This document shows positions 20,137 through 42,530 of a stretch of 64,000 nt of DNA, piece by piece. The notes under the pieces are model-generated. The model saw only the letters and a program-made list of their open reading frames with translations, was not told the origin of the DNA and ran no database searches. Origin of the DNA: Armatimonadota bacterium (GTDB lineage Bacteria; Armatimonadota; Zipacnadia; UBA1398; JAKPQA01); contig JAKPQA010000319.1 of NCBI GenBank assembly GCA_029547025.1, forward strand, positions 1,263 to 65,262, written 5' to 3'. The position numbers were made by a program, and so were the translations under genes. Every line of letters begins with the position of its first letter. Within the stretch, counting starts at the first letter, position 1.

Positions 20137-20424
20137 GGCAAGCCAGAGCGACGCGCGGCAGCCATGCACAGGGTTCCACACGGCGGCGGTGGACAGCGGC
20201 CCGGTTCCGAGCCAGTTCGGTCAACAAGGCGTGACAGTTTCGGGACGCTTCACGAGGAGGTCAAGGGGGGGCGCCAACGAAGGTGTAGGGTTATCCGGCT
20301 TCCCATGGCGCCGTCGGCAATGCCCTGGGGTCGTGACCCGACCCGCACCCAGGGCCGTCGGGCCGCCGTAACGAAGGAGTCCCCCCGCAGTCGGCCGTGT
20401 GCGAGCCCTGAGGAGGTCCCCGGT

Positions 20425-21762
20425 GTGAAAGCGCGATCATTGTGGCCCATGGTCTGCCCCTGCGTGATCCTCCTGGCGGCGGCAGCCCGTCCCGAGGCGG
20501 ACGCCACCACCGATAACCCTGTGGTCGGCCCGCCCGCCGCCCCAACCGACACACCCACGGCACCCGATAAGGGGCCCCTCATCACCATCACCCCCGAAGG
20601 GGTGTCCGTCTATGCCGTCCGGTGTGACGCGCATGCCCTGCTGACCGACATCGCCCGGAAGACCGGGTTCTCGATCATCGTCGACGACTCGGTCCGTGGC
20701 GTCCTGACCGTGAACTTCAAAAACCGCAAGGTGTCCGACATCATCCGGGACATCGCCGCCACCTACGGCCTGGCCTGCCGCGAGGAGAACGGCGTGTTCA
20801 CCATCACCGAAGGACTGCCGGCCCACGTCTCGTCCTACCTGCTCTCGGAGATGGCTTCGGTGCGTCCCGACTACATACCGGCCAGCGATGCCGAGCAGCT
20901 CCTCCCCGTGTTCCTGCAGGACTATACGGCGCCAAGTCTCCATCAGAACGCCGTGGTGCTGTCCGCCCCGCCCGAGATCCTCGAGAAGTTCCGCGGCGAC
21001 GTGAAGCAGTTCGATGTGCCGGCCGCTCAGATCATGATCGAGGTCCTGATGGTCGAGTTTGGCGAGACGAACAGCGACGAGTTCTACGCCAAGCTCGGTT
21101 GGTCGCGGAACGGCCGGGGAGTCACCACCGACTCGGCTCGGGGGGCGGCCACGTTCCACGTGCTGGGCGATCTGCCGGTGGGCTTCACGGCGGAGCTCCG
21201 GGCCATGGAGGCCGCCGGCAGAGCCCACGTTCGCGCCAACCCGCGGATCGCCACCGTCAGCGGGCGCGAGGCCAGTGTCTTCATCGGTGAAAGGCGGTTC
21301 CTGGCCAAGCCCGTCGAGATGTCGGGCGGAGATGATGGCAACGATGACAACCGGCGGCAGATCAACTTCATCAACGCCGGAGTGAACCTCAGCATCACGC
21401 CGTGGACCGGCGGAGAGGGCGAGATCCAGGCTCAGATCCAGACCGAGGTCTCAACCATGAGCGCACCCGATGCCGTAACCGGGTTACCCCAGAAACAGAC
21501 TCGATCCGCCAGCACGGACATCCGGATGCTCGACGGCGAGACGGTGCTCATTGGCGGGCTGGTCCAGGATGAGATGATCGAGACCAAGTCCAAGATACCG
21601 GTCCTCGGCGACATCCCGCTGATCGGCAAACTCTTCCGTAGCAAGAACACACGGCGATTCCAGACCGAGCTGGTGGTGTTCGTAACCGCCAGGATCCTGC
21701 CGGGAAGCAACGGGAATGGCCAACCACACGCCGCCAAGGAGGCCCGCGCGACCGCACCATGA
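20425..21762 (+). CDS. Secretin-family outer-membrane channel protein, paralog 1
   Basis: The C-terminus GGLVQDEMIETKSKIPVLGDIPLIGKLFRSKNTRRFQTELVVFVTARIL is the canonical secretin motif (VP.LGDIPllG.LFr.....e.ElliFiTPrIv). An N0/secretin-N-like segment LLTDIARKTGFSIIVDDSVRGVLTVNFKNRKVSDIIRDIAATYGL is present. The GTG start with GAGGAGG 8 nt upstream gives the signal peptide VKARSLWPMVCPCVILLAAAA. Confidence 0.75.
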   Translation: MKARSLWPMVCPCVILLAAAARPEADATTDNPVVGPPAAPTDTPTAPDKGPLITITPEGVSVYAVRCDAHALLTDIARKTGFSIIVDDSVRGVLTVNFKNRKVSDIIRDIAATYGLACREENGVFTITEGLPAHVSSYLLSEMASVRPDYIPASDAEQLLPVFLQDYTAPSLHQNAVVLSAPPEILEKFRGDVKQFDVPAAQIMIEVLMVEFGETNSDEFYAKLGWSRNGRGVTTDSARGAATFHVLGDLPVGFTAELRAMEAAGRAHVRANPRIATVSGREASVFIGERRFLAKPVEMSGGDDGNDDNRRQINFINAGVNLSITPWTGGEGEIQAQIQTEVSTMSAPDAVTGLPQKQTRSASTDIRMLDGETVLIGGLVQDEMIETKSKIPVLGDIPLIGKLFRSKNTRRFQTELVVFVTARILPGSNGNGQPHAAKEARATAP

Positions 21763-23474
21763 CGCCCCATCACGCTGCCCCTCGATTCGGCATGGCCCCC
21801 CTGCTTGCCCTGGCGATGGCAGGCGCGGCCGTCCCTGCCCTGGCGCAGGTCGGCCGCGTGTACTGCAACGTGACCGAAGTAAAGGCCACGCAGCTCTCGA
21901 ACGCGGTTCGCATCGATCTCCGGTGCGACGGGCAGCTCGAGGTCGCCGCGGACCTCACGGACTACGTCGAGGTGGATCCGCGGCAGGGCGGCGTCACCGC
22001 CGCCAAGCCGGTCCGGAACATCGTGTTGCGGCTGACGAACGCCAAGTCCAGGGTGGGCGCGTTCATCGATGTCGGTCGCTACCCCGTGAGCCACGTCGAG
22101 ATGGCCCCCCTGCCCGACAGCCCCGATGGCGTCGGCGTGGCCTGCACGATCTCGCTCTACCCCCCGGGCCGCACCAACGGCCTCCGTATGGCTCCGTACT
22201 ACCTCGATCCCCACGACTTCATCGAGGCCGGCCTGGGCTTCAGGCCCGGCGAGGTCCGATGGCTTGTTCAGGAGGCCGACGACCGGCGCGGCCTCGTGTT
22301 CATCGTGACCTCGGATCGCTTCGCCATCGATGCCGACTCCTCCCCTGAGGAAGAGGTCCCCTATACGCTCGACATCGGCTATGCCGACGGGCTGGTGGAA
22401 GTGCGTGCCGTGCGCGCGCCGATCGGCGCATTGGCGGAAACCATCGGAGCGCGCACCGGGCTCCGTTGCACCGTGGCCGGCGACCCGGGCCGGCGCGTGT
22501 CACTCTACGTGCCGCCCACTCGGCCGGAGCGGGTGTTGAGTGAACTCGCCCGCTCCCAGGGGCTGACGCTGATGAAAGACCCCGCCGGTCCCATGCAGCT
22601 GCAGGCCCTCGCTCCCCGCGACCCGGCCACCTATGACGGTACGGAGACACGCTTGCTCCGGCTGAACCACCTGACGGCCGAGGAGGCACTCGGGCTCCTG
22701 CCGGTGTGCCTTCTGCGCTATGTGCGACCCAGCCCCGAGCAGAACGCCCTCGTCGCGTCGGGCTCCACCGAGCTGCTCGACCACCTGCAGGCGAATCTGC
22801 AGGCCGTCGACCTGCCCGCCCCGATCATCGAGGTCGTCGTCGAGGTCCTGGCCCACTTCAGCGATCGTGGCTCACTGGCCCACCTCGCCATCGACGGCCA
22901 GGCGGGCCGCTGGGTTGGTGGGGCGAGCGGGGAGGGCCTCGAGGCATTCTGTACGCCCGTCGGAGCTCTGCGACCCGAACTCGAAGCGCACATCCGCGAC
23001 CTGCGCCTCGCCGGCGAGCTCGACGTCGTGACCCGGCAGCGTCTCAGCATCACCAATGGTAGCAAGGGCCACGTGTTCGTCGGTGACCAGCCGACGATTG
23101 TGACCAGCTACTATGACTACTTCGAGAACGAGATGCGACCGGATCTGACGGTGGTCGACGTCGGCGCCCGGCTCGAGATCGAGCCGTGGACCGGCAACCG
23201 CGAGGACATCACCGTCCACCTCTCCCCCGCGGTCTCGAGCATCCGCGGCGAGGATCCGATCACCGGTATGCCCGTGCTGAGTGTGCGCAGGGCCGAGGCC
23301 ACCGTCCGCGTGCGGGCCGGCGAGCCAATCGTGCTGGGCGGGCTCAGCATGTTCTCCGACGAGAGCACACACCACCGGCTCAACCTGCCGGTCATTCAGT
23401 CCATATTCCGGGGTCGAGGCCGCACGGAGCAGAACGCCGAGTTCAGCTTCGTGGTCACCCCCAGGGTGCTGTAG
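21759..23474 (+). CDS. Secretin-family protein, paralog 2
   Basis: The C-terminus GEPIVLGGLSMFSDESTHHRLNLPVIQSIFRGRGRTEQNAEFSFVVTPRVL is secretin-like. The signal peptide is MAPLLALAMAGAAVPALAQVG. The ATG overlaps the paralog-1 stop (ATGA). Confidence 0.75.
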   Translation: MTPHHAAPRFGMAPLLALAMAGAAVPALAQVGRVYCNVTEVKATQLSNAVRIDLRCDGQLEVAADLTDYVEVDPRQGGVTAAKPVRNIVLRLTNAKSRVGAFIDVGRYPVSHVEMAPLPDSPDGVGVACTISLYPPGRTNGLRMAPYYLDPHDFIEAGLGFRPGEVRWLVQEADDRRGLVFIVTSDRFAIDADSSPEEEVPYTLDIGYADGLVEVRAVRAPIGALAETIGARTGLRCTVAGDPGRRVSLYVPPTRPERVLSELARSQGLTLMKDPAGPMQLQALAPRDPATYDGTETRLLRLNHLTAEEALGLLPVCLLRYVRPSPEQNALVASGSTELLDHLQANLQAVDLPAPIIEVVVEVLAHFSDRGSLAHLAIDGQAGRWVGGASGEGLEAFCTPVGALRPELEAHIRDLRLAGELDVVTRQRLSITNGSKGHVFVGDQPTIVTSYYDYFENEMRPDLTVVDVGARLEIEPWTGNREDITVHLSPAVSSIRGEDPITGMPVLSVRRAEATVRVRAGEPIVLGGLSMFSDESTHHRLNLPVIQSIFRGRGRTEQNAEFSFVVTPRVL

Positions 23475-23484
23475 GGGCGGCGAG

Positions 23485-25227
23485 ATGAGACGTAGAGGAA
23501 CATGGCTGTCGTTGTGGCTGCTCGGCCTGATCTCTGCCCAGGCTCAAGCCATCGTCTACTGCAACATCACCGACGTCCGGTGTGACGTGCTCTCCAACGG
23601 TATCCAGGTCACCGTGGCATCGGATGGCATTCTGGAGTATCAGCATCCCACCGAGCAGTGGCAGCCGCGTTACTGGAGCGGCAAGAGCCTGACGCTCCTG
23701 TTCCCCGGCGCTCGCTCCAAGTTCGGACGCAACTTCATCGACGTGAGCAAGTTCCCCGTGAGCTTCATTCAGCTGTCCATTCCCACCACGGCCCAGGAGG
23801 GCGTTGGCATTCTCCTGACCGTATCGGCGATGGCCAACACGGACTTCCGCATCTCCCAGGCCGCCAACCGCCAAAGCGTCATCATCACGGTGGCCAGTAC
23901 GCGCACGCTCGAGAAGGGAGCCGGTGCGACAGCCACCTCGGGTGGCGAGGCCCAGCTCACCGTCGAGACCCGGAACGGCACCGCGTCCGTCCATGCCGTG
24001 AACGCCGACGTGCACGAGGTGTTCGCCCGTGTGGCGCAGGCGCTCAACCTCGACGTCGCCGTCGATGACGGCGTCGACCGTCGCATCAGCGTCTTCATGG
24101 CCGACGTTCCGGGTGAGGACCTGCTGCGAGCCATTGCCCGGGCCGCCGGGCTCGCCCTCGTCAAGACCCCCGATGGCACCTTCATGGTCAGCGCGGGTGT
24201 GGTCGAGGATCTGGCGACCTATCGTCTCACCGAGACGCGATCCTTCCGGATGCACAACATCCAGGCGTCCTCGGCCGCCCAGCTGCTGCCCACCTTCATC
24301 TTCCCCTACCTGCACCAGAACAAGCCCCAGAACGCCGTGGTCGTCACCGCCCAGGAGGATATGCTCGAGAAGATCGAGGCGGACCTGAGGGCCATCGACA
24401 AGGCGCCGCCCCAGATCATGATCGAGGTCCTGGCCGTGGAGTTCATCGACACCAGGGAGGCCGAGCGGTCCCTGGCGCTCCTCCACAACACGGCGGGCTC
24501 CGCCGACACCTACGACTCGACCCTCGGCGATATCAGCTACTCGACCATCGGCGTGCTGCCCGAGGAGTTCCTCGCCAATGTGAACTGGCTCAAGAGCAAG
24601 GGCAAGGCGGTCATCAAAGCGCAGCCGAAGATGGCTGTCCTCAACGGGGGTCAAGCGAGGATTTTCATCGGGTCGACCCGGTTCATCGAGGTCGAGGTGA
24701 GTCAGTGGGGCAGTGTGTCCCGTCGCATCCAGGGAGTCAACGTGGGCGTGACGCTCGACATCTCACCGTGGACCGGCGAGAGCCGGGAGATCACGACCAC
24801 CATCGCGCCCACCGTCTCGAACATCTCCGAGCTCGACTCGGAAACCGGCCTCCCCGTACTCAGCACGCGCGATGCCAAGACGCAGGTCCGGGCGCTCAGC
24901 GGCGAGACCATCATGATCGGAGGCCTCTCCCTCGAGCAGGCGCAAGTCACGAGCCACAAGACGAAGGTCCTTGGTGATCTGCCTCTCATCGGCAAACTCT
25001 TCCGCCGCAAAGCGACCCAGCGAACCGAGTCCCTGCTGGTCATCTTCGTCACACCCAGGCTGCTCGATGAGCGCGGCCGACTGCCGGAGGCCGAGCGCGA
25101 GTCGATCCACAAGCGGTTCCTGGAGTCCGACCACGGGTGGCAGGAACCCGCGACCATCGAGGTGAAGCGCTCGGGTGACCGCCTGAGCTGGAGGGAGACC
25201 GTCGCGACTCCGGCTTCGGGGTCGTGA
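23485..25227 (+). CDS. Secretin-family protein, paralog 3
   Basis: The C-terminus GETIMIGGLSLEQAQVTSHKTKVLGDLPLIGKLFRRKATQRTESLLVIFVTPRLL is secretin-like. The signal peptide is MRRRGTWLSLWLLGLISAQAQA. The ATG sits 10 nt after the paralog-2 stop. Confidence 0.8.
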   Translation: MRRRGTWLSLWLLGLISAQAQAIVYCNITDVRCDVLSNGIQVTVASDGILEYQHPTEQWQPRYWSGKSLTLLFPGARSKFGRNFIDVSKFPVSFIQLSIPTTAQEGVGILLTVSAMANTDFRISQAANRQSVIITVASTRTLEKGAGATATSGGEAQLTVETRNGTASVHAVNADVHEVFARVAQALNLDVAVDDGVDRRISVFMADVPGEDLLRAIARAAGLALVKTPDGTFMVSAGVVEDLATYRLTETRSFRMHNIQASSAAQLLPTFIFPYLHQNKPQNAVVVTAQEDMLEKIEADLRAIDKAPPQIMIEVLAVEFIDTREAERSLALLHNTAGSADTYDSTLGDISYSTIGVLPEEFLANVNWLKSKGKAVIKAQPKMAVLNGGQARIFIGSTRFIEVEVSQWGSVSRRIQGVNVGVTLDISPWTGESREITTTIAPTVSNISELDSETGLPVLSTRDAKTQVRALSGETIMIGGLSLEQAQVTSHKTKVLGDLPLIGKLFRRKATQRTESLLVIFVTPRLLDERGRLPEAERESIHKRFLESDHGWQEPATIEVKRSGDRLSWRETVATPASGS

Positions 25228-25247
25228 TCGGGAGGCGAGAGGCCCCG

Positions 25248-26258
25248 ATGACCTGGAGGGCGCGGACGCGAGGAAAACCGGGGCGAGTTTGTGCGGGCAT
25301 CGCCTGGCTTTCCCTGGTCTGCACCTGTGGCTGCGGGCTGTCCGCGGGTGGGGGTGAGGGAGCCGCCGGCTCGGACTACGAGGTGCTCTACGTCCGCGAT
25401 GGCCGCCTCGTCGCCGTTCACCCCGATGGGTCCGACGCCCGCGTGGTGAACTCTGCACTCACCGGCTGCCGCGAGCCCCAGGGGTCGCCCGATGGGCGTT
25501 TCATCGCCTGCGTCTCCGGTGCCTTCGTCTACATCATGGCCCGCGACGGCTCCGGGGCTCACGCCGTCGCTGGGCGCGTCGCCACCGCCGAGCCGGTCTA
25601 TCCCAACTGGTCGCCCGACGGGCGGAAGCTGTGTTTCGCCGGGCTGGACCAACGCGTCCACGTGCTCGAGCTCGACGCCACCATGGGCCCGGAGCGCGAG
25701 ACGGCCATCGCGGCAGGCCCGGGCGGCGCGCCCGCCACACCGAGCTTCCTGACCAACCAGAGACTGCTCTTCGCCGCGCGCGCCCCCGAGGCGGCCGGGC
25801 CCGGCCAGGGCGACGGCTGGCTCTACACGGTGAACATCGATGGCAGCGGCCTGCTGCCCTTCTTCTCCTCCGCCACCTCGGTCTACGGCGTCGACCCGAC
25901 TCGCGGCAACGTCCGGCGCGCCGTCCGCGCGAACCGCGCGGACTGGATCGTGTTCGAGAGCGATGTTCGCGGCGGCTACGACCTGTGGCTCGCCTACCTC
26001 GATGGCGATGTCTACGGCTGTGTTACGCAATACGACTACCCGGTTGGCGAGTCGGCGCGAGGCACCGCGGCCTGGGAGCGCAATGTGGCCGGGCGCTGGA
26101 CACCCGACGGCCGAATCGCCTACGAGTCCGCCCACTACGATGCCCTGGGATGGGGCGTGCCGCAGATCTGGATCACCGACAAGTTCGGCTCATACCCCGT
26201 GCAGCTCACCCACGACCCCGAGGGTGCACACCAGCCAGGGATCCTGGTGAGCGAGTAG
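25248..26258 (+). CDS. TolB-like beta-propeller lipoprotein (PD40/WD40-like repeats)
   Basis: PD40-type repeats PNWSPDGRKLCF, GSPDGRFIACVS and GRWTPDGRIAYES are present. A lipobox-like WLSLVCTCGCG follows a positively charged N-region. The ATG at 25248 has GGGAGG upstream. An alternative GTG at 25224 overlaps the secretin-3 stop. Confidence 0.6.
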   Translation: MTWRARTRGKPGRVCAGIAWLSLVCTCGCGLSAGGGEGAAGSDYEVLYVRDGRLVAVHPDGSDARVVNSALTGCREPQGSPDGRFIACVSGAFVYIMARDGSGAHAVAGRVATAEPVYPNWSPDGRKLCFAGLDQRVHVLELDATMGPERETAIAAGPGGAPATPSFLTNQRLLFAARAPEAAGPGQGDGWLYTVNIDGSGLLPFFSSATSVYGVDPTRGNVRRAVRANRADWIVFESDVRGGYDLWLAYLDGDVYGCVTQYDYPVGESARGTAAWERNVAGRWTPDGRIAYESAHYDALGWGVPQIWITDKFGSYPVQLTHDPEGAHQPGILVSE

Positions 26259-26422
26259 CGACCGGGCATGGGCGTCCATGGGCCGCAGAGTCGAAGGAGC
26301 TCGTCCGCTTGCCCAGGGTCTGGCGATCCGCCCGGAGGTCGTTTGGGGCCCAGCGGTAGCAGCTGGCCTCAGGGGGGTAAGAGCCTCGGGTGCGCTCATT
26401 GCGGTCCTCCGACGGGCCGTGA

Positions 26423-26797
26423 GCCTCCCCAGGCGTAGACGTTCCTGATCGGTCGGCCGCGGGTCCATCGGGGCGGGGGGAGAGGGCGACGGGGGGCGGC
26501 GAGCTGGATGACATCCTGTACTGCCCCCACCGGCCCGACGAGGCGTGCGCCTGCCGCAAACCGCGGCCCGGTCTGATCCTGGAGGCCATCGCGCGGTACG
26601 AGGTCGATCCGGCATCGTCATTCATGATCGGCGATCGCGAGGGCGACATGGCGGCGGGCCGCGCCGCCGGCGTGCGGACCATCCGTATCGTGACTCGCCT
26701 GACGGGTGCCGACGCGGCCCACACCCAGGCCGAACACCAGGCGCCGGACTTGCCCACGGCGGTGGATTACATCCTCGGTGCGGCAAGCGTGAAGTAG
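26423..26797 (+). pseudogene. 3' fragment of a gmhB-like HAD-IIIA phosphatase (D,D-heptose-1,7-bisphosphate phosphatase family); N-terminal catalytic part absent
   Basis: The in-frame translation ...GGGELDDILYCPHRPDEACACRKPRPGLILEAIARYEVDPASSFMIGDREGDMAAGRAAGV... matches the GmhB/HisB-N C-terminal half (yyCPHhP....C.CRKP.PGml..A......S.miGD...Dm.aa..AG). There is an in-frame stop at ~26420 and no DxDGT motif in any upstream frame. Coordinates are within a few nt. Confidence 0.45.
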
Positions 26798-26815: not shown

Positions 26816-29800
26816 CTAGCCCTCCAGTCCGGCCAGTCGCGCCACGTGTGCTTTGCTACCGTCGTTGGCCCATGGGTCCAGTTCGCTGGGATCCTTCAGC
26901 TGCTGTCCCCGGCGGCGAGGGACCGCCAGGTACCCGCAGCGCACGTCGGCCAGCGCGGTCATATCGCCCCAGAGTTTCTCGAACTGGGCCGTGGGGTACA
27001 CATCCTCCTGGCCGTGACCCCAGCGCCATTTCACGTCTTTGATCGTCACATAGGTCGGCACGCGCCCGGCCAAGTGACGCACGGCCTCAGTGAGCCGTTC
27101 TTCCGGCCCGCGCAGATCGTTGCGGTTCAGCCCGAAGAGGTCGAGCAGCGGATCGATCTCGATCCAGCAGGTGCCCGAGTTGTAGTAGCGCAACCGCAGC
27201 TCGTCCCCGTCGCGTGGCTGGGCCAACCCTTCGAGCAGACGAATCCGCCCGTTCACCCGCGCCAACCCGCCGCCGCGATCGTTGGCACGCCGCGGCACCA
27301 CCTCGAAGGTCAATGCGTTGCCTGATGCCAGGTGAGCGCCCAAGGCCGCCGGATCGAGGTCGGCCCCCAGCGTGTCGATGTTGTGGAGCATGATGGTGGT
27401 GAGCTTCGGGTGCTCCTCCAGCAGCCGCGCTAGCACGCCGTTCCTCAGCAGATTCGGTACCTCATACCAGTGTCCTGGTGGGTGGAATCGTTGGGCAGGG
27501 ATGTTGTCCACATAGTCACTCCCCTCGCCCTTCTCCTTGGCCCACCTGACCAGGGCTGCGCGAACGGCATCTCGCACCTTTTGCTTCTGCTCGTCCAGAG
27601 CCTCCTGGGCCGTTTCCTCCCAGAGGCACACCAGGTCGCGCACCATGGGGATCATCCGCTGGCCGATTGCTCGCCCCGGCGACAGGTACACCGATCCCTC
27701 ATAGCCGTGGTTCCCGTGGCGCTCGAGGTGCTCGGCGATCGGCTCGTGCGTCAGGAAGCTGGTCGACACGATGTGTGGCACGTTCGTCCCATAGCCTCGG
27801 GACGTCTGGAGTGTCTTGCGGAGGTGGATCTCGAGGAAGCTCCGGTGGTGCCCGGCCATGAGTACGAAGGGGCTGAGGGCCTTGATGACGCCCGCGCCAG
27901 CGGTCCAGCGCGTCCCGACACCGGCTGCCAGGGACATTACGGCTACGCGGCCCTCGCGCAGAGCCCGCATACCCAGCTCCCGATGGTCACCGCAGGCATC
28001 GAGGGCCATCACATCGCCCGGCTCGACATCGCGGATCTCCGTCTCGACGGGAAGCCGGTTGTGAGCCAGGCCCGTGCGGCCTTGGCGGAGATCCGCGCGA
28101 AGCTGCTCGTGGAGCACCGGGTCGAACCCGTTGCGTCTCTTGATCTCCGCCGCCTCGGCATCCCACGCCAACCGGTCTCCCTGTGACGCCGGGTCGGAGA
28201 CGCGGAACAGATTGCTGACCAGGGTGCGGAGCAGTCCGTAGGCCTGGCCGGGTTGGTCGCAGCGGGTGGTGAAATGGTCGAGCTCGGCCCGCCGCAGGTA
28301 TGAGAGATCATCACGGTGCTGGCGCACCAGTTCCGGGGTCTGTAGCGCATAGTACCGTGCCGGCATCATGGCTTCGACACCCTCGAGCAGCGAGGCCACT
28401 GTGCCGTGCTCGTTCACGCGGAAGTCGTACACCAGCGGGTCGATGGCGAACGGGAGTGAGGCCTCGAGCTCTCGCTTCGCCTCGCACATGATCTCGAGCA
28501 CCTCGTCCCGGAATCGCCCATGGCGCTCCGGGGCCACGAACATGGCCATGCCGCCCCCGGACATGCCTCCGAGCATGAGGAAGCCCCAGAAGTCATCCTG
28601 CAGGCGCTGCCGGGCGCGCGCGATGAGGGTCTCGGTGAAGGCGTTGGTGACCCATGGGATGATGGTCTTCAGGGGGCCGGACCAGTTGCGGGTGGTGTTG
28701 CGCGCCAGCTCGAGCACATCGCCGGATCGCAGCGCCGCCACGATGTGGTCGAAGATCTCGCGCATGTGCTGACGGGCTTCCCACTCGGCCTGGTTCCGCA
28801 GCAGGTATTTCTCGGTGACCATCTCGAGGATCGGCCCCACGTTCTGAGCCAATCCGCCGTGGATCAGGACCAGGGAGTCGGCCAGCTGCTGGGCCGTGGC
28901 CGGGTGGAGGTCGTCGGCACCCAGAATCCTGTGCCGCGGCAGCAGGCGGCCTTTGCTGATGCCGAACTCGGGGTCACCGGGCTCGGCGACCGCCCCTTGG
29001 ATGATCTTGAACCCCGGCCAGAGCCCGCCCGAGTCCTGCCAGCCGCCGCCCGAGCCCCCCAGCCACTCCCCCAGGATGGCCCGTGAGGCCACCAGGCGCC
29101 GCTCGCGTTCGAGCAGAGGCCCCGTAAGCTGCGCGGTCTGCCCCGTGGCGCGCATGAGGACACTCACAATGCACGCCAGCAGATTCGTGGACACCGCCAG
29201 CCGCGACCCTTTGGGGATGTCGTTCACATTCGTGACGAGCTCCAGTCCCATACCCGGCCCGATGACGCGCGAGAGCAGGCGCGGCAGCGACTGCCCCGTC
29301 CCCTCGAACGCCGGGGGGACCACGCCGGAAGCGATGACACCCGCCTTCAGCAGCCCCAGGTAGTCGTCGCCGAAGTTGAACAGGTCACGAAGGTCCGTGA
29401 TGTCCTTCGTGGCCGGCAGGTCAACACTCGTGAGCCGCAGTACGGGCTCGGGGATGACACGGACATAGGCCTCGATGGGTGGTCGAACCGCTCTGTCCCG
29501 TCCGTAGACGCCGAGGTCAACGGAGATGTTGAGGACTCGCGCACCCTCGGGGTAATCCATGCCCAGGAAGAAGATGTCCGACCAGCCTGAGTGGCTGAGA
29601 TCGAGCCGGACCGGCGTTCGCTCGACCAGCACGGGATACAGGAGGGATCCCTCGCGGCGTGTGAGCAGGTCTTGCCGGATCCGCACGGGGTGATCCTCGA
29701 CATGGCTGGTGCGGAACATCCACTGGTTTCCGCGGCTGGCACGGACACTGCGCCGCACCTGGTCCACCAGACTCTGGAAGGCGAGGCGGTGGTAGCCCTC

Positions 29801-30151
29801 GGCCAAGGCGCTGGATAGGGCCGAGTTTGGCCCCTCGGTTCGCTGCACGCGGAGGAGCCGGTCGATGGCCTGACCGAAGCGGCGGGCCAGCAGGTCTTCG
29901 AATGCCTGCTGGGGGATGACGCCAGTCTGGGGGATGCCGGGCGATTCCATGAGGGCGAACCGGTGCGCGGCGTACAGGAAGAGGGCCGCGCGGACCCGGT
30001 GGTAGAGGTTCTCCGTCGACCGGCGGAACGCGTCGAGCTCATCGCAGGCGGAGACCAATTCGGTGGCTGTGAGCCCCGTGCAGAGCTCCTCGAAGGGGCG
30101 ATCCCGTTCCGCAGGCTCCGTACTGGTGATGGTGCGGATGAAAGCGTTCAC
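26816..30151 (-). CDS. Large multidomain protein: unknown N-domain + GHMP-kinase-like domain + UDPGP-family (UDP-sugar/UGPase-type) pyrophosphorylase domain
   Basis: GHMP-like glycine motifs are LGGSGGGWQDSGG and LMLGGMSGGGMAMFVAPE. UDPGP-family signatures are LAAGVGTRW (compare LNGGLGTSMG), LHNIDTLGADLDP (compare SNIDNLGATVD) and YNSGTCWIEID (compare FNTNNLWISL). The 1111-aa frame is continuous. Confidence 0.6.
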   Translation of the reverse strand: MNAFIRTITSTEPAERDRPFEELCTGLTATELVSACDELDAFRRSTENLYHRVRAALFLYAAHRFALMESPGIPQTGVIPQQAFEDLLARRFGQAIDRLLRVQRTEGPNSALSSALAEGYHRLAFQSLVDQVRRSVRASRGNQWMFRTSHVEDHPVRIRQDLLTRREGSLLYPVLVERTPVRLDLSHSGWSDIFFLGMDYPEGARVLNISVDLGVYGRDRAVRPPIEAYVRVIPEPVLRLTSVDLPATKDITDLRDLFNFGDDYLGLLKAGVIASGVVPPAFEGTGQSLPRLLSRVIGPGMGLELVTNVNDIPKGSRLAVSTNLLACIVSVLMRATGQTAQLTGPLLERERRLVASRAILGEWLGGSGGGWQDSGGLWPGFKIIQGAVAEPGDPEFGISKGRLLPRHRILGADDLHPATAQQLADSLVLIHGGLAQNVGPILEMVTEKYLLRNQAEWEARQHMREIFDHIVAALRSGDVLELARNTTRNWSGPLKTIIPWVTNAFTETLIARARQRLQDDFWGFLMLGGMSGGGMAMFVAPERHGRFRDEVLEIMCEAKRELEASLPFAIDPLVYDFRVNEHGTVASLLEGVEAMMPARYYALQTPELVRQHRDDLSYLRRAELDHFTTRCDQPGQAYGLLRTLVSNLFRVSDPASQGDRLAWDAEAAEIKRRNGFDPVLHEQLRADLRQGRTGLAHNRLPVETEIRDVEPGDVMALDACGDHRELGMRALREGRVAVMSLAAGVGTRWTAGAGVIKALSPFVLMAGHHRSFLEIHLRKTLQTSRGYGTNVPHIVSTSFLTHEPIAEHLERHGNHGYEGSVYLSPGRAIGQRMIPMVRDLVCLWEETAQEALDEQKQKVRDAVRAALVRWAKEKGEGSDYVDNIPAQRFHPPGHWYEVPNLLRNGVLARLLEEHPKLTTIMLHNIDTLGADLDPAALGAHLASGNALTFEVVPRRANDRGGGLARVNGRIRLLEGLAQPRDGDELRLRYYNSGTCWIEIDPLLDLFGLNRNDLRGPEERLTEAVRHLAGRVPTYVTIKDVKWRWGHGQEDVYPTAQFEKLWGDMTALADVRCGYLAVPRRRGQQLKDPSELDPWANDGSKAHVARLAGLEG

Positions 30152-30152
30152 G

Positions 30153-31124
30153 CTAGCTCACCCGCTCCATGGCGCGGCCCAGCCTGGCTTCCGCCAGGAG
30201 ATCGGCGATGGCGCCCAGGACCTCTGCCTGATCGTTGCCGGTCAGGCCCAGGGCGATCTGAGTTCGGAGGAGGCCATAGCGCTGGCCGATGTCGCACCAC
30301 CGGCCGTCGACCTCCAGCGCCAGGCATTTCTGCCGTTGGGCGAGTTCGTGGAGGGCAGGAGTGAGTTGGTACTCCCCCTCTTCGGCGCCGCCGCGTTCGA
30401 TGCTCTCTTCGAGGATCTCGAGGATCTCGGGCGTCAGCACATGCATCCCAAGCAGGCACAGGTAGTGCCCGGCGCGCAGACCGGGGGTCTGGAGCTCGAG
30501 CTCAGCCAGGCTTACCGAAGGCTTCTCGATGATTCGCTCGATCTGGTACACCCCGGCCAGGTCAGGGACGTGGGATCCCGCTAGCGTCCCGTAGTTGCCG
30601 ATCAGGTGTTCTCGGGTCGACTGGACCGTGGAGACGGCGCATTTCGCTTGGGTGGCGAGCCCGATCGCCAACTCGGCGCCGTGCTTCCCGTTCTCGCGGG
30701 GCACATAGAGGTGATCGCCGAGTAGGAGCATGAAGGGCTCGGCGCCCACGAAGTGCCGGCCGCAGTAGACCGCGTGCCCGTAGCCCAGGGGCTCCTCCTG
30801 GACCGCAAAATGCAGTCGTGCCAGCAGATCCCCGATCCGATCCGCCTGGGCTTCGGCCCACGGGCCGCTGTGAGGCGCGGCCAGGAGGTTTTGGCGGAGA
30901 AGGCCAAACTGGGCGAGGTATTGAGCCTCATCGCCGGGGGCACAGATGATGCAGATCTCCTCGATGCCGCTGGCGAGGGCCTCCTCGGCGATGATCTGGA
31001 TGACCGGCTTCGCCACGCCGTCGCGATCGATGAGGGGGAGCATGGCCTTCTGGACAGTGCTCGCGGCCGGGTATAGCCGGGCACCTCGCCCGGCGGCTGT
31101 GATGAGCGCTTTGCGGACCTGCAT
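30153..31124 (-). CDS. GalU-type UTP--glucose-1-phosphate uridylyltransferase-like nucleotidyltransferase
   Basis: ALITAAGRGARLYPAASTVQKAMLPLIDRDGVAKPVIQIIAEEALASGIEEICII matches the GalU N-terminus (AvIPAAGlGTRfLPATKaiPKEMLPivDkP.IQY.veEA..aGi). There is a C-terminal extension of ~100 aa. The stop abuts the start of the 1111-aa gene. Confidence 0.7.
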   Translation of the reverse strand: MQVRKALITAAGRGARLYPAASTVQKAMLPLIDRDGVAKPVIQIIAEEALASGIEEICIICAPGDEAQYLAQFGLLRQNLLAAPHSGPWAEAQADRIGDLLARLHFAVQEEPLGYGHAVYCGRHFVGAEPFMLLLGDHLYVPRENGKHGAELAIGLATQAKCAVSTVQSTREHLIGNYGTLAGSHVPDLAGVYQIERIIEKPSVSLAELELQTPGLRAGHYLCLLGMHVLTPEILEILEESIERGGAEEGEYQLTPALHELAQRQKCLALEVDGRWCDIGQRYGLLRTQIALGLTGNDQAEVLGAIADLLAEARLGRAMERVS

Positions 31125-31244
31125 GGCTTGTTCCTCTCGTGGCAGCAGGTGCTCACCGCCCCTGCGGCAGAGCAGGGAATGCCTGGTATACGACACCAAC
31201 CTGCAGATTGGTGGTCCTGAGATCCAGGAGTCCACAGTGCTTGG

Positions 31245-31949
31245 TCAGGTTGGCGCCATGGTTGGCTCGGCGCGTGCGGCGTTGGCCGCGGGCGATCTGC
31301 GCGGTGAGCGCGCCCAGACTATCGGGCGTGTGGTTGGCCAGTTCTGGCCGCGCAGGTTCGCCCACACCACTACCGTCCACCGGAGGTGCGGTCGCAGCTG
31401 TCGCACGTTCGGACGCTGGGAGCAGCCACTCTCGTCGACGAAAACCACGGTGGCATGCGCGTTCAGCGCCCCCCCCAAGACGCGAGGCCACTCCTCGGCC
31501 TGCCATGCCGCGATCCACTCCTCATTGCGCTGTTTGGCGCGCCGCGAGGGCTTCTGGCAACTGAAACCCATCTGCTGCATTATCTGCCACACCTGGGTCA
31601 CTGACCGCTGGACACCAAACCGCTTCTTGATGACCTGGACGATCCGAGTCAAAGCCCACAGGTCGGTGCTGTATCCATGGGCTCGCGGGCCCCGCAGCAG
31701 TTCCTCCCTCAGTATCCGTAGCTCTTCGGCACCCAGAGCGGGCCGGTAGCCCCGCGGTCCAATGCTCCGCAGCGCCTCGACCCCCCCCTCCTGCCATTTC
31801 CTCCGCCCGCCACACGCGGCGTGGGCACTCACGCCCAGCCTCCGGGCCACCTCGCTGCCGGACATGCCGGCCTCGAACAGCGGGCCTGCTTCCATGCGAC
31901 AGGTTTCCAGCGCCGCCGTGTTCTGTGGGTTTCTCGGTAGCTTGGCCAT
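31245..31949 (-). mobile_element. IS630/Tc1-family transposase remnant (HTH domains and start of DDE domain, then frame decay)
   Basis: The N-terminal HTH is GMSGSEVARRLGVSAHAA. ...WALTRIVQVIKKRFGVQRSVTQVWQIMQQMGFSCQKPSRRAKQRNEEWIAAWQAEEWPRVL..ATVVFVDESG is the first DDE Asp region. The downstream translation then becomes Arg/Pro nonsense, indicating a frameshift or truncation. No inverted repeats were identified. Confidence 0.55.
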
Positions 31950-32189
31950 GCATACATGTACTAGACACATCCACTCCGTGCCTACATTCCCAAAACGGGA
32001 ATGTCATTAGTCCGCATCCCCCGTTCCGTCGTGTTGTCGGCCCACACACGACAAGCGCATGCGCCTCGACCTATACTCTGTCATGGACCCAAGAGCTCCA
32101 TCCTCGTGCAGGCGCCGCCATCAAGAGGATCAGTGGTGTTGCGGCGGTCGGCCTGTAGGAGCCGAGGGGTACCAAGGGAGCTGAAGGGT

Positions 32190-32588: not shown

Positions 32589-32900
32589 GTCGGGCACTGG
32601 ACCCGATGGTCTGAACTGCCTCTGCTACCAGCGTGTGAGTGGCGACTCCCTGTTTCTCAATCGGCCCACTGCATGGCCGCCCGAAGTCCGGCTTCGCCCG
32701 TCGTCTCCGGTAACAGACCCCGATGGAACCAACTTGAAAGCATGAGTCGGGTCCGGGGCCTCAGAACATGGCATATGAGCGATGCATCGCCGACGTGCGT
32801 CAGGGCTGCTCGAGCGATGTTTGGTGTGCGGATGGCGAGATCGGGTCGGGGTCCGGCCGGGCCCGGAAGCCACATGGGGGGGCTGCTAGGAGCGAGAGGC

Positions 32901-33701
32901 ATGGCGCAGGATGGCTGGTTACGCGAAGATCAGGTGGTTGCCGATCTGACCAAGGAGGCGATCCTTCAGACCATTGCGGGATCCATGGAGCGGGTCGAAC
33001 TGGGGGCCGTCGAGGACGGGACCCTCTGTTGGTACCCGTCGCGGTTGGTCGCGACTGAGCCCGATGGTCGCCTGGTACTGGTGGCCAGCGACGCCCTGCG
33101 GCAGAGCGCGGCCGGACGACCCGGCAGCCGACTCCTGCTATGCCTGCGCGGCTCCAGCGGCGGCTATGTCGGCCAGGTGCTCGTCTGCGCCGAGGGGCCG
33201 GACGATCCGAACCAGCCGGAGCACACGATCGCCGTCTCGCCTCCTGCGGTGTTTCACCTTCTCCGAAGAAGAGAGCATCAGCGTCTGCGTCTGAGTCCGC
33301 CCATCGAGGCGCAGGTGAGCTTCGCGGGGATGCGCTTCCGGTGCCAGGCGGTGGTTGAGGACGTCAGCGTCTCCGGCGCTCGGGTGCGGGTCTTCCCGCC
33401 CACTCCCGATGGGAGTGAGCTGCCGGTGGGTGCACCGGCGGGCAGATCGGGGGGCGTTATGAGGTTCGAGCTGCCCGGCAGTATGGAGCCATTGTGTTGT
33501 GAGATCTGCATCGCCTGGTGCCAGTACGTGCCCAATGCCAACGGGGACCAGTCGATGGTGATGGGTGTGAGCTGGCCTCATATGGCCGCTGTGGACAAGG
33601 CCCGGTTGTCCGATTTCCTGGCCACCCTCGGGGGTCCCGAGCCGGCAGGAGGACTCAGCCGGCGGGGCACACTGCTCGAACTGCTCACATCGCCAGAATG
33701 A
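32901..33701 (+). CDS. PilZ-domain protein (putative c-di-GMP receptor) with N-terminal domain of unknown function
   Basis: The C-terminal half has RREHQRLRLSPPIEAQVSF...RCQAVVEDVSVSGARV, which fits the PilZ RxxxR...D/NxSxxG signature. The ATG at 32901 is preceded by GAGAGG. Confidence 0.5.
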   Translation: MAQDGWLREDQVVADLTKEAILQTIAGSMERVELGAVEDGTLCWYPSRLVATEPDGRLVLVASDALRQSAAGRPGSRLLLCLRGSSGGYVGQVLVCAEGPDDPNQPEHTIAVSPPAVFHLLRRREHQRLRLSPPIEAQVSFAGMRFRCQAVVEDVSVSGARVRVFPPTPDGSELPVGAPAGRSGGVMRFELPGSMEPLCCEICIAWCQYVPNANGDQSMVMGVSWPHMAAVDKARLSDFLATLGGPEPAGGLSRRGTLLELLTSPE

Positions 33702-37996: not shown

Positions 37997-38482
37997 TCAT
38001 CGAGACAGCGGCCCGGTGGTGTTCCGGGCCGCCCGCGTTGGTTCTGGCTCCATCAGGAGTAGCGGCCCGTCACGGAGCACCACGTCATCCACACTGGTCA
38101 TACTGATGACCTTGCACCCGGCATCGCAGGTGGCCGCGATGAGCTTCGAGCACGCATGGGGTGCGAAGGCGGTGTACAGGCCAGGCTCATACGCTTCGTA
38201 GGGGACCCCGAGCTCGTCCAGCACCCGGTGGCCGGGGTCGCGGATGGTCAGTTGGTTCATCAGGTAGCCGCCGATCCAGAACCCGCCTCCCAGGTAGTTG
38301 TTGCTCTCGAAGATGACGGTGCGCGCGCCACGGCGTGCCAGGTCGCGGCCGGCCATCAGGCCACTGGGTCCGGCACCGACGATGATGACGTCGCTGTCGG
38401 TGACGGACAGGAGCTCGCGAGTGAACCGCTCGACGATGCCCCGGGTGATGCTCTTCTCGGTTACTGGAGCGAACAGGCTCAT
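37997..38482 (-). pseudogene. thi4: Thi4-family thiazole synthase, truncated after ~160 aa
   Basis: GIVERFTRELLSVTDSDVIIVGAGPSGLMAGRDLARRGARTVIFESNNYLGGGFWIGGYLMNQLTIRDPGHRVLDELGVPYE...VDDVVLRDG closely parallels the Thi4 N-terminal two-thirds. Translation stops 9 codons after the conserved RDG, and only 123 nt remain before the convergent gene's stop. No Thi4-like C-terminus appears in any frame. Confidence 0.5.
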
Positions 38483-38621
38483 GGGGTACCTCCGCGGAAA
38501 GAGAGATGCGGCACCCGCCTACGCCCGGACCACCGGGGCGCCGCAAAATGATAGGCTAGTTAGGGTAATACATCAACTTTATTGCGTCGCCGTCCGGCTC
38601 GGGCGGGATGAGAGGGGAATC

Positions 38622-39836
38622 GTGGTGTCTGCGGTGGTGCTGCTGGCCCTGTCGGCCACCGTTCTGGCCGAGGGCCTGCCTTCGCGAGCTGATCTTCGGC
38701 CCGACTACGCGTCGCTTGGCCTCAAGCCCAAGAACCAGAATCCGCGCGGGTGCTGCTCGCTCTTCGCCATGGTCGGTGTCCTCGAGTTCGAGCTGGCCAA
38801 GGCCACCGGTAAGCCCGTCTCGCTGTCTGAGGAGTATATGAACTGGGCATCGCACCAGACCAACGGACGCGGGAGTGATGGTTCGTTCTTCTCGGATGCG
38901 CTCCGCGGCGCCGAGTGCTTCGGCATCTGCGCCGAGACGCTCATGCCCTACCAGCGTGAGTTCCGCCCCGATGCCGAGCCATCGGTCGAGGCGTTTCGCG
39001 ATGCCGAGACGCGCAAGGGCGTGTCGGCTCTGTGGATCAAGGAGTGGGACGTCACGACCGGCATGACCAATGCCATGCTGGCGCAGATCCGCGAGAGCGT
39101 CGCGACGGGCCACCCGGTGGCGATCGGCATGCGGTGGCCGAAGACCGACACCTACCTGGGCGACCAGTTGCTCACTCCGCCGAGACCCGAGGATGTGTTC
39201 GACGGCCACAGCGTGGTGATCGTGGCCTATGAGGATGACGCGGCCCAGCCGGGCGGGGGCACATTCGTCTTCCGCAACTCCTTCGGCCCCGAGTGGGGCG
39301 AGGGCGGGTACGCCCGCATGTCGTACGCCTACGCCCAGGCCTACGGCAACGACGCGCTGGGCCTGCGCATTGGTGGAGGACGGACGGTGCCGAGCAACCG
39401 GGTTGCAGCCGATCCCATCGAGGTTGAGACCCTCGAGGTCGCCCAACGGCGTGGGTGCCAGTCCGCCGACCCACCGCCCCTTCTGTGGTGCCCTGCGCTA
39501 TGGAGTGGCGGCGGGCAGGTCGCCTATGCGGCGGAGGTGGGAGCCCGGCTGGACCTGCGACTGATTGCTCCCGCGGCGGGTACCTATCGAGTTTGGCTCT
39601 TCGGGACGGCTGGGCCGAGCTTCGGTGAGATCCGGATGACGCTCGACGGAGAGCGGGCGGGTCGTGACATCGACCTGTATGCCACGGAGCTACGGCCCAC
39701 CGGTCGCATTGACCTCGGGGTACATACGCTGGAGGCGGGTGCGCGGGCACTCCGCCTGGACGTGATCGGGAAGGACCATCGGTCGTCGGGGTATGACTTC
39801 GGCCTGGACTGCATCGAGCTGGAGAGGGTCTTGTAG
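38622..39836 (+). CDS. Secreted papain-like (C1 family) cysteine peptidase with C-terminal beta-sandwich domain
   Basis: The GTG start with GAGGGGAA upstream gives the signal peptide VVSAVVLLALSATVLA. The catalytic Cys context is NQNPRGCCSLFAMVGVLE, the His context is DGHSVVIVAYED, and the Asn/Trp region is NSFGPEWGEGGYARMSY. Confidence 0.65.
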   Translation: MVSAVVLLALSATVLAEGLPSRADLRPDYASLGLKPKNQNPRGCCSLFAMVGVLEFELAKATGKPVSLSEEYMNWASHQTNGRGSDGSFFSDALRGAECFGICAETLMPYQREFRPDAEPSVEAFRDAETRKGVSALWIKEWDVTTGMTNAMLAQIRESVATGHPVAIGMRWPKTDTYLGDQLLTPPRPEDVFDGHSVVIVAYEDDAAQPGGGTFVFRNSFGPEWGEGGYARMSYAYAQAYGNDALGLRIGGGRTVPSNRVAADPIEVETLEVAQRRGCQSADPPPLLWCPALWSGGGQVAYAAEVGARLDLRLIAPAAGTYRVWLFGTAGPSFGEIRMTLDGERAGRDIDLYATELRPTGRIDLGVHTLEAGARALRLDVIGKDHRSSGYDFGLDCIELERVL

Positions 39837-39838
39837 CC

Positions 39839-42403: not shown

Positions 42404-42530
42404 CACGGGCCGGCGGCTGGGCCGACTGCAAAAGCGCCCGGGCCGAGTGGAAGTGGCCCGCGAGGCGGGGAGGGCGCCATCCGATCCGTTCGGGCGGAAG
42501 GCGCTACAGTACCAGGCACGGGACAGGGCG

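Follow-up and report, generated by a model that had tools for sequence, protein, structure and literature searches.

A kinase fused to a nucleotidyltransferase, encoded next to a second nucleotidyltransferase, raises the question of what such a set of enzymes might do for a bacterium. The locus that raises it lies on contig JAKPQA010000319.1 of an Armatimonadota assembly (GCA_029547025.1), of which we analyzed 64,000 nucleotides (positions 1,263 to 65,262 of the forward strand; this whole stretch is the window, and coordinates below are numbered within it). A first-pass annotation made from the letters alone had described an 1111-residue fusion of a GHMP-kinase-like domain with a UDPGP-type sugar-1-phosphate pyrophosphorylase, coupled to an upstream GalU-like gene. 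With slightly more belief than doubt, we read the locus as a conserved two-gene operon that activates a free sugar by means of a kinase-pyrophosphorylase fusion (sugar to sugar-1-phosphate to UDP-sugar). The homology of the kinase and UDPGP domains to characterized enzymes, in sequence and in predicted fold, argues for this reading.

Integrity and layout of the fusion gene

The main gene occupies positions 26816..30151 of the reverse strand, from a GTG start at 30151 to a stop at 26816-26818, and its 1111 codons contain no internal stop; the GC content of the window is about 67%. All five motifs quoted in the first-pass annotation, namely LGGSGGGWQDSGG, LMLGGMSGGGMAMFVAPE, LAAGVGTRW, LHNIDTLGADLDP and YNSGTCWIEID, are present in the translation. 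The annotation had itself raised the possibility that a sequencing-error frameshift had run two genes together. Among the matches listed, however, more than 100 homologues of 1108-1127 residues align at 99-100% query coverage with 66-90% identity, the full-length protein is likewise encoded, uninterrupted, at 83 loci of named genomes, and an identical partial protein from an Armatimonadota metagenome-assembled genome (MAG) is present in a public collection (P0046). Because homologues of about 1110 residues match end to end in independent genomes, the frame is not a frameshift artefact. The same architecture and length recur in hundreds of such genomes, including complete chromosomes (Singulisphaera, Chitinophagaceae), and we found no point in favor of an assembly error or frameshift joining two genes, an explanation to which we give practically no credence.

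The partner gene lies immediately upstream on the same strand. Its TAG stop codon (30155-30153) stands one base from the GTG at 30151, which bears out the claim that the two genes abut; the resulting junction, TAG-c-GTG (30149..30155, reverse strand), is of a form that we read as translational coupling. The genes of several other phyla share a 4-nt overlap at this point.

To define the domains, we modeled the protein with AlphaFold2 (AF2), obtaining a predicted local distance difference test (pLDDT) score of 76.6 and a predicted template modeling (pTM) score of 0.76, and compared the model with known folds by Foldseek. The layout consists of an all-alpha domain (residues 1-150), a GHMP kinase domain (~170-592), a helical linker (~593-700) and a UDPGP domain (~701-1111). 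Invariant columns among 84 aligned sequences make up 32% of the GHMP core, 30% of a 69-residue insert described below, 25% of the second half of the UDPGP domain, 18% of the N-terminal domain and 12% of the linker, which is the least conserved segment. Since the catalytic cores remain 25-32% invariant across about nine phyla, catalysis is favored over decay. From these alignments we conclude that the GHMP and UDPGP domains are constrained in the way expected for active enzymes, and that neither is an orthodox representative of its nearest characterized family.

The kinase domain

Three lines of evidence place a GHMP anomeric sugar-kinase domain of the fucokinase/heptokinase type at residues ~170-592 (28376..29644, reverse strand). 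Residues 174-541 match the fucokinase half of FKP in the NCBIfam model PRK13412 (E 7e-21); at 73.6 bits the match falls far short of the cut-off of 721 and is confined to profile positions 609-936, the kinase half. The best PDB sequence match of the region in HMMER is FKP from Bacteroides fragilis (E 1e-10). The Foldseek matches include FKP (9iit, E 7e-19), its kinase half (9iip, template modeling (TM) score 0.75), the heptokinase WcbL (4usk, TM 0.85) and galactokinases (E ~1e-9). Sequence and model together thus support the assignment of the middle domain to the fucokinase/heptokinase branch of GHMP sugar kinases.

We then mapped the active site by combining the residue roles established for FKP (PMC11982464) with the HMMER alignment, and assessed invariance in a 40-sequence alignment. 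The equivalents of the catalytic arginine R592 (R182), the sugar-stacking W599 (W190), the sugar-binding D601 (D192) and Q761 (Q372), the catalytic E751 (E362; the E751A mutant of FKP is inactive, PMC11982464), the general base D762 (D373) and the metal ligand S719 (S321) are all invariant. One sugar contact, T602, is lost, its place being taken by Ile193. The residues fall in conserved motifs: GHMP motif I (PVRLDLSHSGWSD) lies at residues 180-192, and its PVR182LDLSHSGW190SD192 is invariant in 40 of 40 homologues; the general-base motif G368GGWQD373 and motif III, G528GMSGGG534, are invariant too. These alignments suggest a sugar pocket most like that of L-fucokinase, of the L-fucose, L-galactose or D-arabinose type, minus one threonine contact.

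The phosphate loop differs from this pattern. The GHMP motif II signature, as represented in PROSITE and Pfam PF00288, reads Pxx-G-[LM]-[GS]-S-S. Where FKP has AGSGLGTSS, the protein has KGSRLAVST (G715R, G717A, T718V in FKP numbering), within IPKGSRLAVST, so that glycines are replaced by Arg and Ala and a Ser/Thr by Val, and the metal-ligand serine alone is kept; GSRLAVST is invariant in all 40 aligned homologues. This replacement of the glycine-rich loop accounts for the silence of the Pfam GHMP models: neither GHMP_kinases_N (PF00288) nor GHMP_kinases_C matched, and PF00288 gave nothing at E ≤ 0.1. The GHMP assignment made in the first-pass annotation was therefore upheld for the fold, by domain parsing and by structure prediction (FKP, WcbL), but not for motif II or the Pfam N-terminal model. 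In divergent relatives sharing 33-42% identity (subfamily B, comprising Omnitrophota and giant metagenomic proteins) the loop reads GSGLAVST and Trp190 is absent, and one of them matches PF00288 weakly. The main clade (subfamily A) has thus fixed the loop arginine as a derived trait.

The altered loop and the absence of a Pfam match are what would be expected if the locus encoded a regulated pyrophosphorylase, in which the GHMP-like domain is a noncatalytic sensor, like Gal3p, and/or the partner is a noncatalytic regulatory subunit, like GalF or GMPPA. However, about nine phyla share without exception the general-base Asp, the Arg, the Ser that binds the metal, the Glu and motif III of the kinase, and the more canonical GSGLAVST kept in subfamily B indicates that the ancestor was probably an active kinase. 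We return to this explanation with the partner, and proceed here with the reading of the middle domain as a kinase.

The UDPGP domain and its insert

The catalytic domain of a UDPGP-type UDP-sugar pyrophosphorylase was located at residues ~701-1111 (26819..28051, reverse strand). UDPGP (PF01704) is the sole Pfam family matched by the protein (52.2 bits against a cut-off of 22; E 5e-14), in the PDB its sequence comes closest to the UDP-glucose pyrophosphorylases of fungi and plants (E 5e-11), and Foldseek returned UGP and UAP1 enzymes at E ~1e-10. The annotation had assigned the C-terminal part correctly.

Residue roles were taken from the Aspergillus nidulans enzyme (AnUGP; PMC10470519), in which phosphate-, Mg- and sugar-binding residues have been described, and transferred through the HMMER alignment, invariance again being read from 40 sequences. 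L121/G124 of the nucleotide-binding loop correspond to L741/G744, G227 and the phosphate-binding H228 to G893/H894, the sugar-binding N256 and E307 to N924 and E974, the Mg-binding D258 to D926, and K292 to R959. The elements L741..G744.G746T, G893H894, N924.D926 and E974 vary little or not at all. The glucose-specific N329 is kept as N991. A second of the three glucose-binding asparagines, N331, is replaced by G993, and by Met in most homologues.

The essential lysines K135 and K403 of AnUGP probably correspond to K757 and K1086, both of them invariant, in a part of the comparison where the alignment is inexact: K757 falls two positions from K135, and K1086 was left unaligned by HMMER. K1086 stands in VPRxRGQQLK, which resembles the motif VPRxRFxPVK. 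Only 25 residues follow K1086, compared with ~110 in UGPs, and the C-terminal left-handed beta-helix domain of those enzymes is missing. With N331 replaced and no beta-helix domain, the protein is not an orthodox UDP-glucose pyrophosphorylase, whatever its database name says.

Gln831 was considered as the counterpart of the uracil-binding Gln198 of UGP, and this candidate was dropped; the position is Leu in all lineages that carry the second of the two partner types described below.

A family-specific insert of 69 residues (827-895; 27467..27673, reverse strand; consensus IPMVRDLVFLWEEMPQETLDEQKQKVR...) has no counterpart in UGP alignments. Its pLDDT in the AF2 model is below 50, yet it is conserved like the catalytic cores.

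The N-terminal domain and linker

The N-terminal domain (residues 1-150; 29702..30151, reverse strand) was modeled alone by AF2 as nine helices with a pLDDT of 90. Foldseek gave no significant match for it in the PDB (best E 0.73), and a profile search against the PDB gave a weak TPR-like signal at residues 76-124 (IFT70, E 4e-7, per-domain E 0.14). The domain was found in every family member, the 33-42%-identical ones included. The unassigned N-terminus had been put at about 270 residues; it is really ~150-170 residues long, motif I lying at residues 180-192 and the match to FKP beginning at residues 174-176. The segment between the two catalytic domains (residues ~593-700; 28052..28375, reverse strand), a linker together with the N-terminal helices of the UDPGP module, is helical in the AF2 model and partly of low confidence.

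The GalU-like partner gene

The partner (30153..31127, reverse strand) encodes a divergent GalU-family sugar-1-phosphate nucleotidyltransferase of 324 residues. The mechanically predicted open reading frame of 360 residues, opening with a GTG at 31235, is 36 codons too long at its N-terminus. Translation really starts at the ATG at 31127, which is preceded by GAGAGGAA and gives a length in keeping with the 311-339 residues of the orthologues. The protein matches PF00483 (E 7e-20), and its residues 3-311 align with residues 3-287 of the 297-residue Bacillus subtilis YngB (7b1r; E 1.6e-33). This alignment runs end to end, so the ~100-residue C-terminal extension ascribed to the gene in the first-pass annotation does not exist; the length in excess of YngB, with the start corrected, is made up of internal insertions.

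The partner is GalU-type in its fold and C-terminal motifs and is not an orthodox GalU, which qualifies the earlier description of it. It scores 135 bits against the TIGR01099 (galU) cut-off of 327, and its nucleoside triphosphate (NTP) loop, AAGRGARLYPAASTVQKAMLP, departs from the AAGLGTRFLPATKAxPKEMLP of GalU; the signature GxGTRxLPxTK...PKEMLP reads GRGARLYPAAS..QKAMLP in the window. The NCBI pipeline names the orthologues merely 'sugar phosphate nucleotidyltransferase'.

An alignment of 79 orthologues separated two types. In type 1 (34 loci, that of the window among them) the loop reads AAGRGxRLYPxxDTVQKAMLP and the helical hairpin of GalU is present. Type 2 (45 loci, from Verrucomicrobiota, Chloroflexota, Phycisphaerae and others) has AAGKxQRTLP-LQTL, in which an 8-residue deletion removes the conserved lysine, and lacks the hairpin. 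Both types keep the motifs EPLGYGHAV, LLGDH, YG, IEKP and D-G, and both have a family-specific 11-residue insert after the EKP motif; the partner in the window carries the family-specific insert PGLRAGHYLC-LGMHVL. Eleven columns of the main protein switch exactly with partner type (residues 259, 261, 271, 281, 332, 495, 525, 831, 888, 889 and 1037), three of them in or at the edge of the 69-residue insert; judged from the alignments, they could reflect co-evolution of the two proteins or simply shared phylogeny. No fusion of the partner to the main protein was found among the top 120 partner homologues, and the giant fusions described below lack a GalU-like domain.

These features bear on the partner as a possible regulatory subunit. 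GalF, a regulatory or assembly subunit, offers an analogy. The strongly altered NTP loop, with its lysine deleted in 45 of 79 orthologues, is in line with such a role, and the strict 1:1 coupling of the genes, the N-terminal helical domain and the conserved insert suggest a hetero-oligomer. The partner has nevertheless retained the lysine of EKP and the Asp motifs that bind Mg, and, taking the conserved kinase residues into account as well, we regard a regulated pyrophosphorylase, in which sensor or regulatory parts control a single active enzyme, as distinctly unlikely.

The conserved glucose and catalytic motifs of the partner can also be read as those of a GalU working in reverse. In such an Isselbacher-type shunt, the kinase would produce a sugar-1-phosphate such as galactose-1-phosphate, the UDPGP domain would turn it into a UDP-sugar with release of pyrophosphate, a housekeeping 4-epimerase would yield UDP-glucose, and the partner would turn UDP-glucose and pyrophosphate into glucose-1-phosphate and UTP. 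The net reaction, sugar + ATP to glucose-1-phosphate + ADP, would need no GalT, with UTP and pyrophosphate cycling between the two pyrophosphorylases. The shunt would account for the constant co-inheritance and translational coupling of a kinase with two different nucleotidyltransferases, and in plants, with USP, the route is an established one (PMC6329318). It sits poorly with a kinase pocket that is L-fucokinase-like rather than galactokinase-like, and with the missing loop lysine of the type 2 partner, which pyrophosphorolysis would require too. The neighborhood adds a 4-epimerase directly downstream in two loci, which would suit the shunt, but an epimerase is adjacent in just 2-3 of 84 loci and no catabolic or transport genes are linked. 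Weighing these points, we consider the shunt rather unlikely and retain activation of a free sugar to a UDP-sugar as the preferred reading.

Distribution and gene neighborhood

The annotation had proposed a database search for proteins with the same domain order. A scan of one genome per species returned at least 566 encoding stretches, which puts the architecture in at least 566 species representatives, spread over about nine phyla, with identities of ~55-72% over 1100 residues; the protein collection holds more than 8000 clusters at 90% identity. The carriers include members of Hydrogenedentota, Armatimonadota, Planctomycetota (Singulisphaera, Tautonia), Verrucomicrobiota, Chloroflexota, Acidobacteriota, Myxococcota and Bacteroidota (Hymenobacter, Pontibacter, Spirosoma, Adhaeribacter, Larkinella, Mucilaginibacter).

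For the neighborhood analysis we used 84 loci. In 81 of them the partner directly precedes the main gene on its strand, and in the remaining three the contig ends within 1 kb, which confirms the coupling to a GalU-like gene. When the flanking open reading frames of the 84 loci were clustered, no other family occurred in more than four. Occasional neighbors act on nucleotide sugars, as would be expected of a UDP-sugar-forming operon: a TviC/GalE-like 4-epimerase lies directly downstream in two planctomycete loci, and a UXS-like decarboxylase lies ~1.2 kb downstream in one verrucomicrobial locus. A dehydrogenase-type neighbor was found in an Omnitrophota MAG (locus L087, 42-5615), where the gene for an 1857-residue protein with UDP-Glc/GDP-Man dehydrogenase domains stands upstream of, and overlaps by 4 nt, the start of a 1343-residue family member. 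This member keeps GSRLAVST and lacks the GalU-like partner, as more divergent homologues can (P0121, P0150).

In two giant metagenomic proteins (P0139, 2318 residues; P0149, 2939 residues; locus L086) the N-terminal-domain/kinase/UDPGP module is fused to ROK sugar kinases, P0139 also carrying an inositol-monophosphatase-family domain. Such fusions of the module to sugar 6-kinases and a phosphatase, together with the position of the heptose-7-phosphate kinase WcbL among the closest folds, would suit a heptokinase-like reaction. There, C1 phosphorylation of a sugar-6-phosphate would give a 1,6-bisphosphate, with Arg317 binding the distal phosphate, and a separate phosphatase would yield the sugar-1-phosphate for the UDPGP domain, bypassing phosphomutase. 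Against it, the fusions belong to the divergent subfamily B, which lacks the loop Arg, Trp190 and the GalU-like partner; no phosphatase is linked to the operon in the 84 loci; and the contacts that FKP makes with the free sugar are conserved. We therefore hold a heptokinase-like reaction to be very unlikely, and continue with phosphorylation of a free sugar.

The inositol-monophosphatase and ROK fusions and the UXS-like neighbor had also brought to mind a glucuronokinase/MIOX pathway. The FKP-like kinase motifs, and the coupling of the Omnitrophota homologue to a protein of the UDP-Glc/GDP-Man dehydrogenase type, led us to demote this idea to a minor possibility.

Several observations on distribution stand apart from these arguments. 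The contig of P0149 also carries a 7976-residue gene with HAD and 'Glycoamylase' (PF10091) domains. A 1292-residue homologue (P0147, locus L090) is present on a 667-kb contig in the nuclear assembly of the oxymonad Blattamonas nauphoetae and may represent a bacterium-to-eukaryote transfer. A 'Williamsia' MAG contig is about as identical to the query as the Bacteroidota (Cytophagales-type) loci are, and 'Nitrospirales' and 'Bathyarchaeia' entries are about as identical to it as the Hydrogenedentota entries are; these inconsistent taxonomic labels (L027, L005/L008/L009, P0022) may be binning errors.

Proposed function

We propose that the fucokinase-like GHMP domain would phosphorylate the anomeric hydroxyl of a sugar at the expense of ATP. 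Asp373 would act as the general base, Arg182 and Ser321 with Mg2+ would stabilize the transferred phosphate, and Trp190, Asp192 and Gln372 would hold the sugar. The UDPGP domain would then convert the sugar-1-phosphate and UTP to UDP-sugar and pyrophosphate, catalysis probably falling to His894, Asp926 and Lys757/Lys1086. The N-terminal all-alpha domain and the 69-residue insert would probably serve as assembly or regulatory surfaces. The co-translated GalU-like protein would be an obligatory partner, catalyzing a linked sugar-1-phosphate/NDP-sugar step or serving as a regulatory subunit. What the comparisons show is the identity of the domains, the retention of catalytic residues, the strict pairing of the genes and their spread over phyla. 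That both domains are active, that their reactions are coupled, that UTP is the nucleotide used and that the proteins form any complex is our inference, and on the same footing a role of the operon in salvage appears plausible. The lost threonine contact of the kinase, the altered asparagine of the UDPGP site and the uninformative neighbors all weaken an assignment of the sugar.

Several points weigh against this proposal. The kinase domain escapes the Pfam GHMP models, and the Arg that replaces Gly in GSRLAVST (GSGLGSS in GHMP kinases) could block or re-purpose the ATP site. In the UDPGP domain, judged by alignment, one of the three glucose-binding asparagines of UGPs has been lost and the C-terminal beta-helix domain is missing, and the candidate uracil-binding Gln831 appears as Leu in the lineages with a type 2 partner, which weakens the assignment of the nucleotide. 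The NTP loop of the partner is likewise atypical by alignment, with the Lys of PKEMLP lost through the 8-residue deletion in 45 of 79 orthologues; a simple salvage enzyme needs no second nucleotidyltransferase, and the atypical partner is the least explained element of the operon. No conserved transporter, glycosidase, regulator or phosphatase adjoins the operon in the 84 loci, and our searches of the literature yielded neither a characterized member of the family nor experimental data on any of its proteins.

A bolder version of the proposal, which we put forward tentatively and consider improbable on present evidence, sees the operon as a self-contained metabolon with three active sites, of a kind so far undescribed in bacteria. 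It would be either a GalT-independent shunt that passes UTP and pyrophosphate between its enzymes and takes a salvaged sugar to glucose-1-phosphate, or a route to a UDP-activated sugar not known from salvage. In the second case a sugar of the L-fucose/L-galactose/D-arabinose type, for example, would be carried on UDP rather than GDP, and the Arg-containing loop, the unmatched N-terminal fold and the 69-residue insert would be the coupling or regulatory machinery.

Comparison with known systems

Fusions of a kinase with a pyrophosphorylase have precedents in FKP (PMC11982464) and in the zebrafish glucuronokinase/pyrophosphorylase DrGKUP (PMC3938481). FKP of B. fragilis (PDB 5yys, 9iit) likewise joins an anomeric GHMP sugar kinase and a sugar-1-phosphate nucleotidyltransferase in one polypeptide, and its kinase domain is the closest homologue of the one described here, with GGGWQD and the equivalents of R592, W599, D601, E751, Q761 and D762 kept. 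The two proteins differ in the order of their domains, the kinase here preceding the pyrophosphorylase, and in the second fold, which is UDPGP (PF01704) here and an NTP_transferase plus beta-helix GFPP domain in FKP; PRK13412 correspondingly matches in its kinase half only. The contrast that the first-pass annotation had drawn with FKP on both counts is thus borne out. They differ as well in the phosphate loop (GSRLAVST here, GSGLGTSS in FKP), in the replacement of T602 by Ile, and in the extra N-terminal all-alpha domain and the separate, obligatory GalU-like partner found here.

DrGKUP combines a GHMP sugar-1-kinase with a bacterial-type (GalU/RmlA-like) nucleotidyltransferase, which resembles the pairing of kinase and partner at this locus. 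In DrGKUP, however, the two are fused, with the nucleotidyltransferase N-terminal and no UDPGP domain; the kinase motifs here are FKP-like, as judged by alignment with FKP.

The eukaryote-type enzymes USP, UGP and UAP1 of the Pfam UDPGP family have the same catalytic fold as the C-terminal domain, which also retains most of their residues for binding phosphate, Mg and sugar. The logic of sugar to sugar-1-phosphate to UDP-sugar is common to the plant and Leishmania salvage pathways, in which separate kinases (GalK, AraK, GlcAK) act (PMC6329318). Here the kinase is fused in cis, the beta-helix domain is lacking, the conserved 69-residue insert is present and AnUGP N331 is replaced.

The GDP-heptose pathway also pairs a fucokinase-related GHMP kinase, HddA (WcbL, a top structural match), with an NTP_transferase-family enzyme, HddC (WcbM). 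That pathway runs on GTP and further requires an isomerase and a phosphatase; the operon described here is linked to no such genes and has a UDPGP domain in their place. As to GalU and GalF, the partner has the GalU fold, length and most of its sugar and catalytic motifs, and differs in falling below the equivalog threshold, in its G[RK]xxR signature, in the loss of the Lys through an 8-residue deletion (45 of 79 orthologues) and in the 11-residue insert after EKP.

We found no experimental or bioinformatic description of the family, the operon or its unusual motifs in the searchable literature. A JGI name, 'UDP-N-acetylglucosamine pyrophosphorylase/galactokinase/mevalonate kinase-like predicted kinase', already notes both domains. 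The public database label 'UTP--glucose-1-phosphate uridylyltransferase' for the main protein is probably wrong or incomplete.

Surroundings of the operon

Directly upstream of the operon (31245-31970, reverse strand) is a gene for a 241-residue protein with HTH_23, HTH_32 and HTH_33 domains only. These domains suggest the DNA-binding N-terminus of a transposase of the IS630 type; the search showed no catalytic domain in the protein. Just downstream of the fusion gene (26206-26757, reverse strand), a 183-residue open reading frame has no Pfam or NCBIfam match. A search for riboswitches and leader RNAs with Rfam gave no match between 25000 and 33000 of the window at E ≤ 0.1, and tRNAs only in nine other loci; promoter and terminator scans gave no signal above the level of shuffled sequences. 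Upstream of the operon in Singulisphaera sp. Ch08 (locus L037, 4390-4789) there are three tandem, equal-scoring tRNA matches, and in Singulisphaera sp. PoT there is one.

Farther out, an unusual cluster of three consecutive secretin-domain genes (20164-21762, 21759-23474 and ~23471-25227) is followed by a gene for a PD40/WD40-like beta-propeller protein (25224-26258), all four overlapping or abutting on the forward strand over 20164-26258. The same strand carries a gene for a PilZ-domain protein (32673-33701) and, at 38298-44543, genes for a papain-family protease (38298-39836), a GH38 alpha-mannosidase-like protein (39839-42403) and a DUF6785/DUF6784 protein (42354-44543; E 1e-124).

Significance

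The synthesis of the cell envelope and of exopolysaccharides depends centrally on the supply of nucleotide sugars, and the carriers of the module include the cultured Hymenobacter, Pontibacter, Spirosoma, Singulisphaera and Tautonia. If the predicted chemistry is correct, the protein would be the first natural fusion of a kinase followed by a UDPGP domain, and would provide a ready-made single enzyme for the one-pot synthesis of UDP-sugars, in the way that FKP serves for GDP-fucose. Whether the obligatory and atypical GalU-like partner recycles catalytically or regulates is a separate mechanistic question. Knowing the sugar would fill a gap in the metabolic reconstruction of many glycan-degrading phyla.

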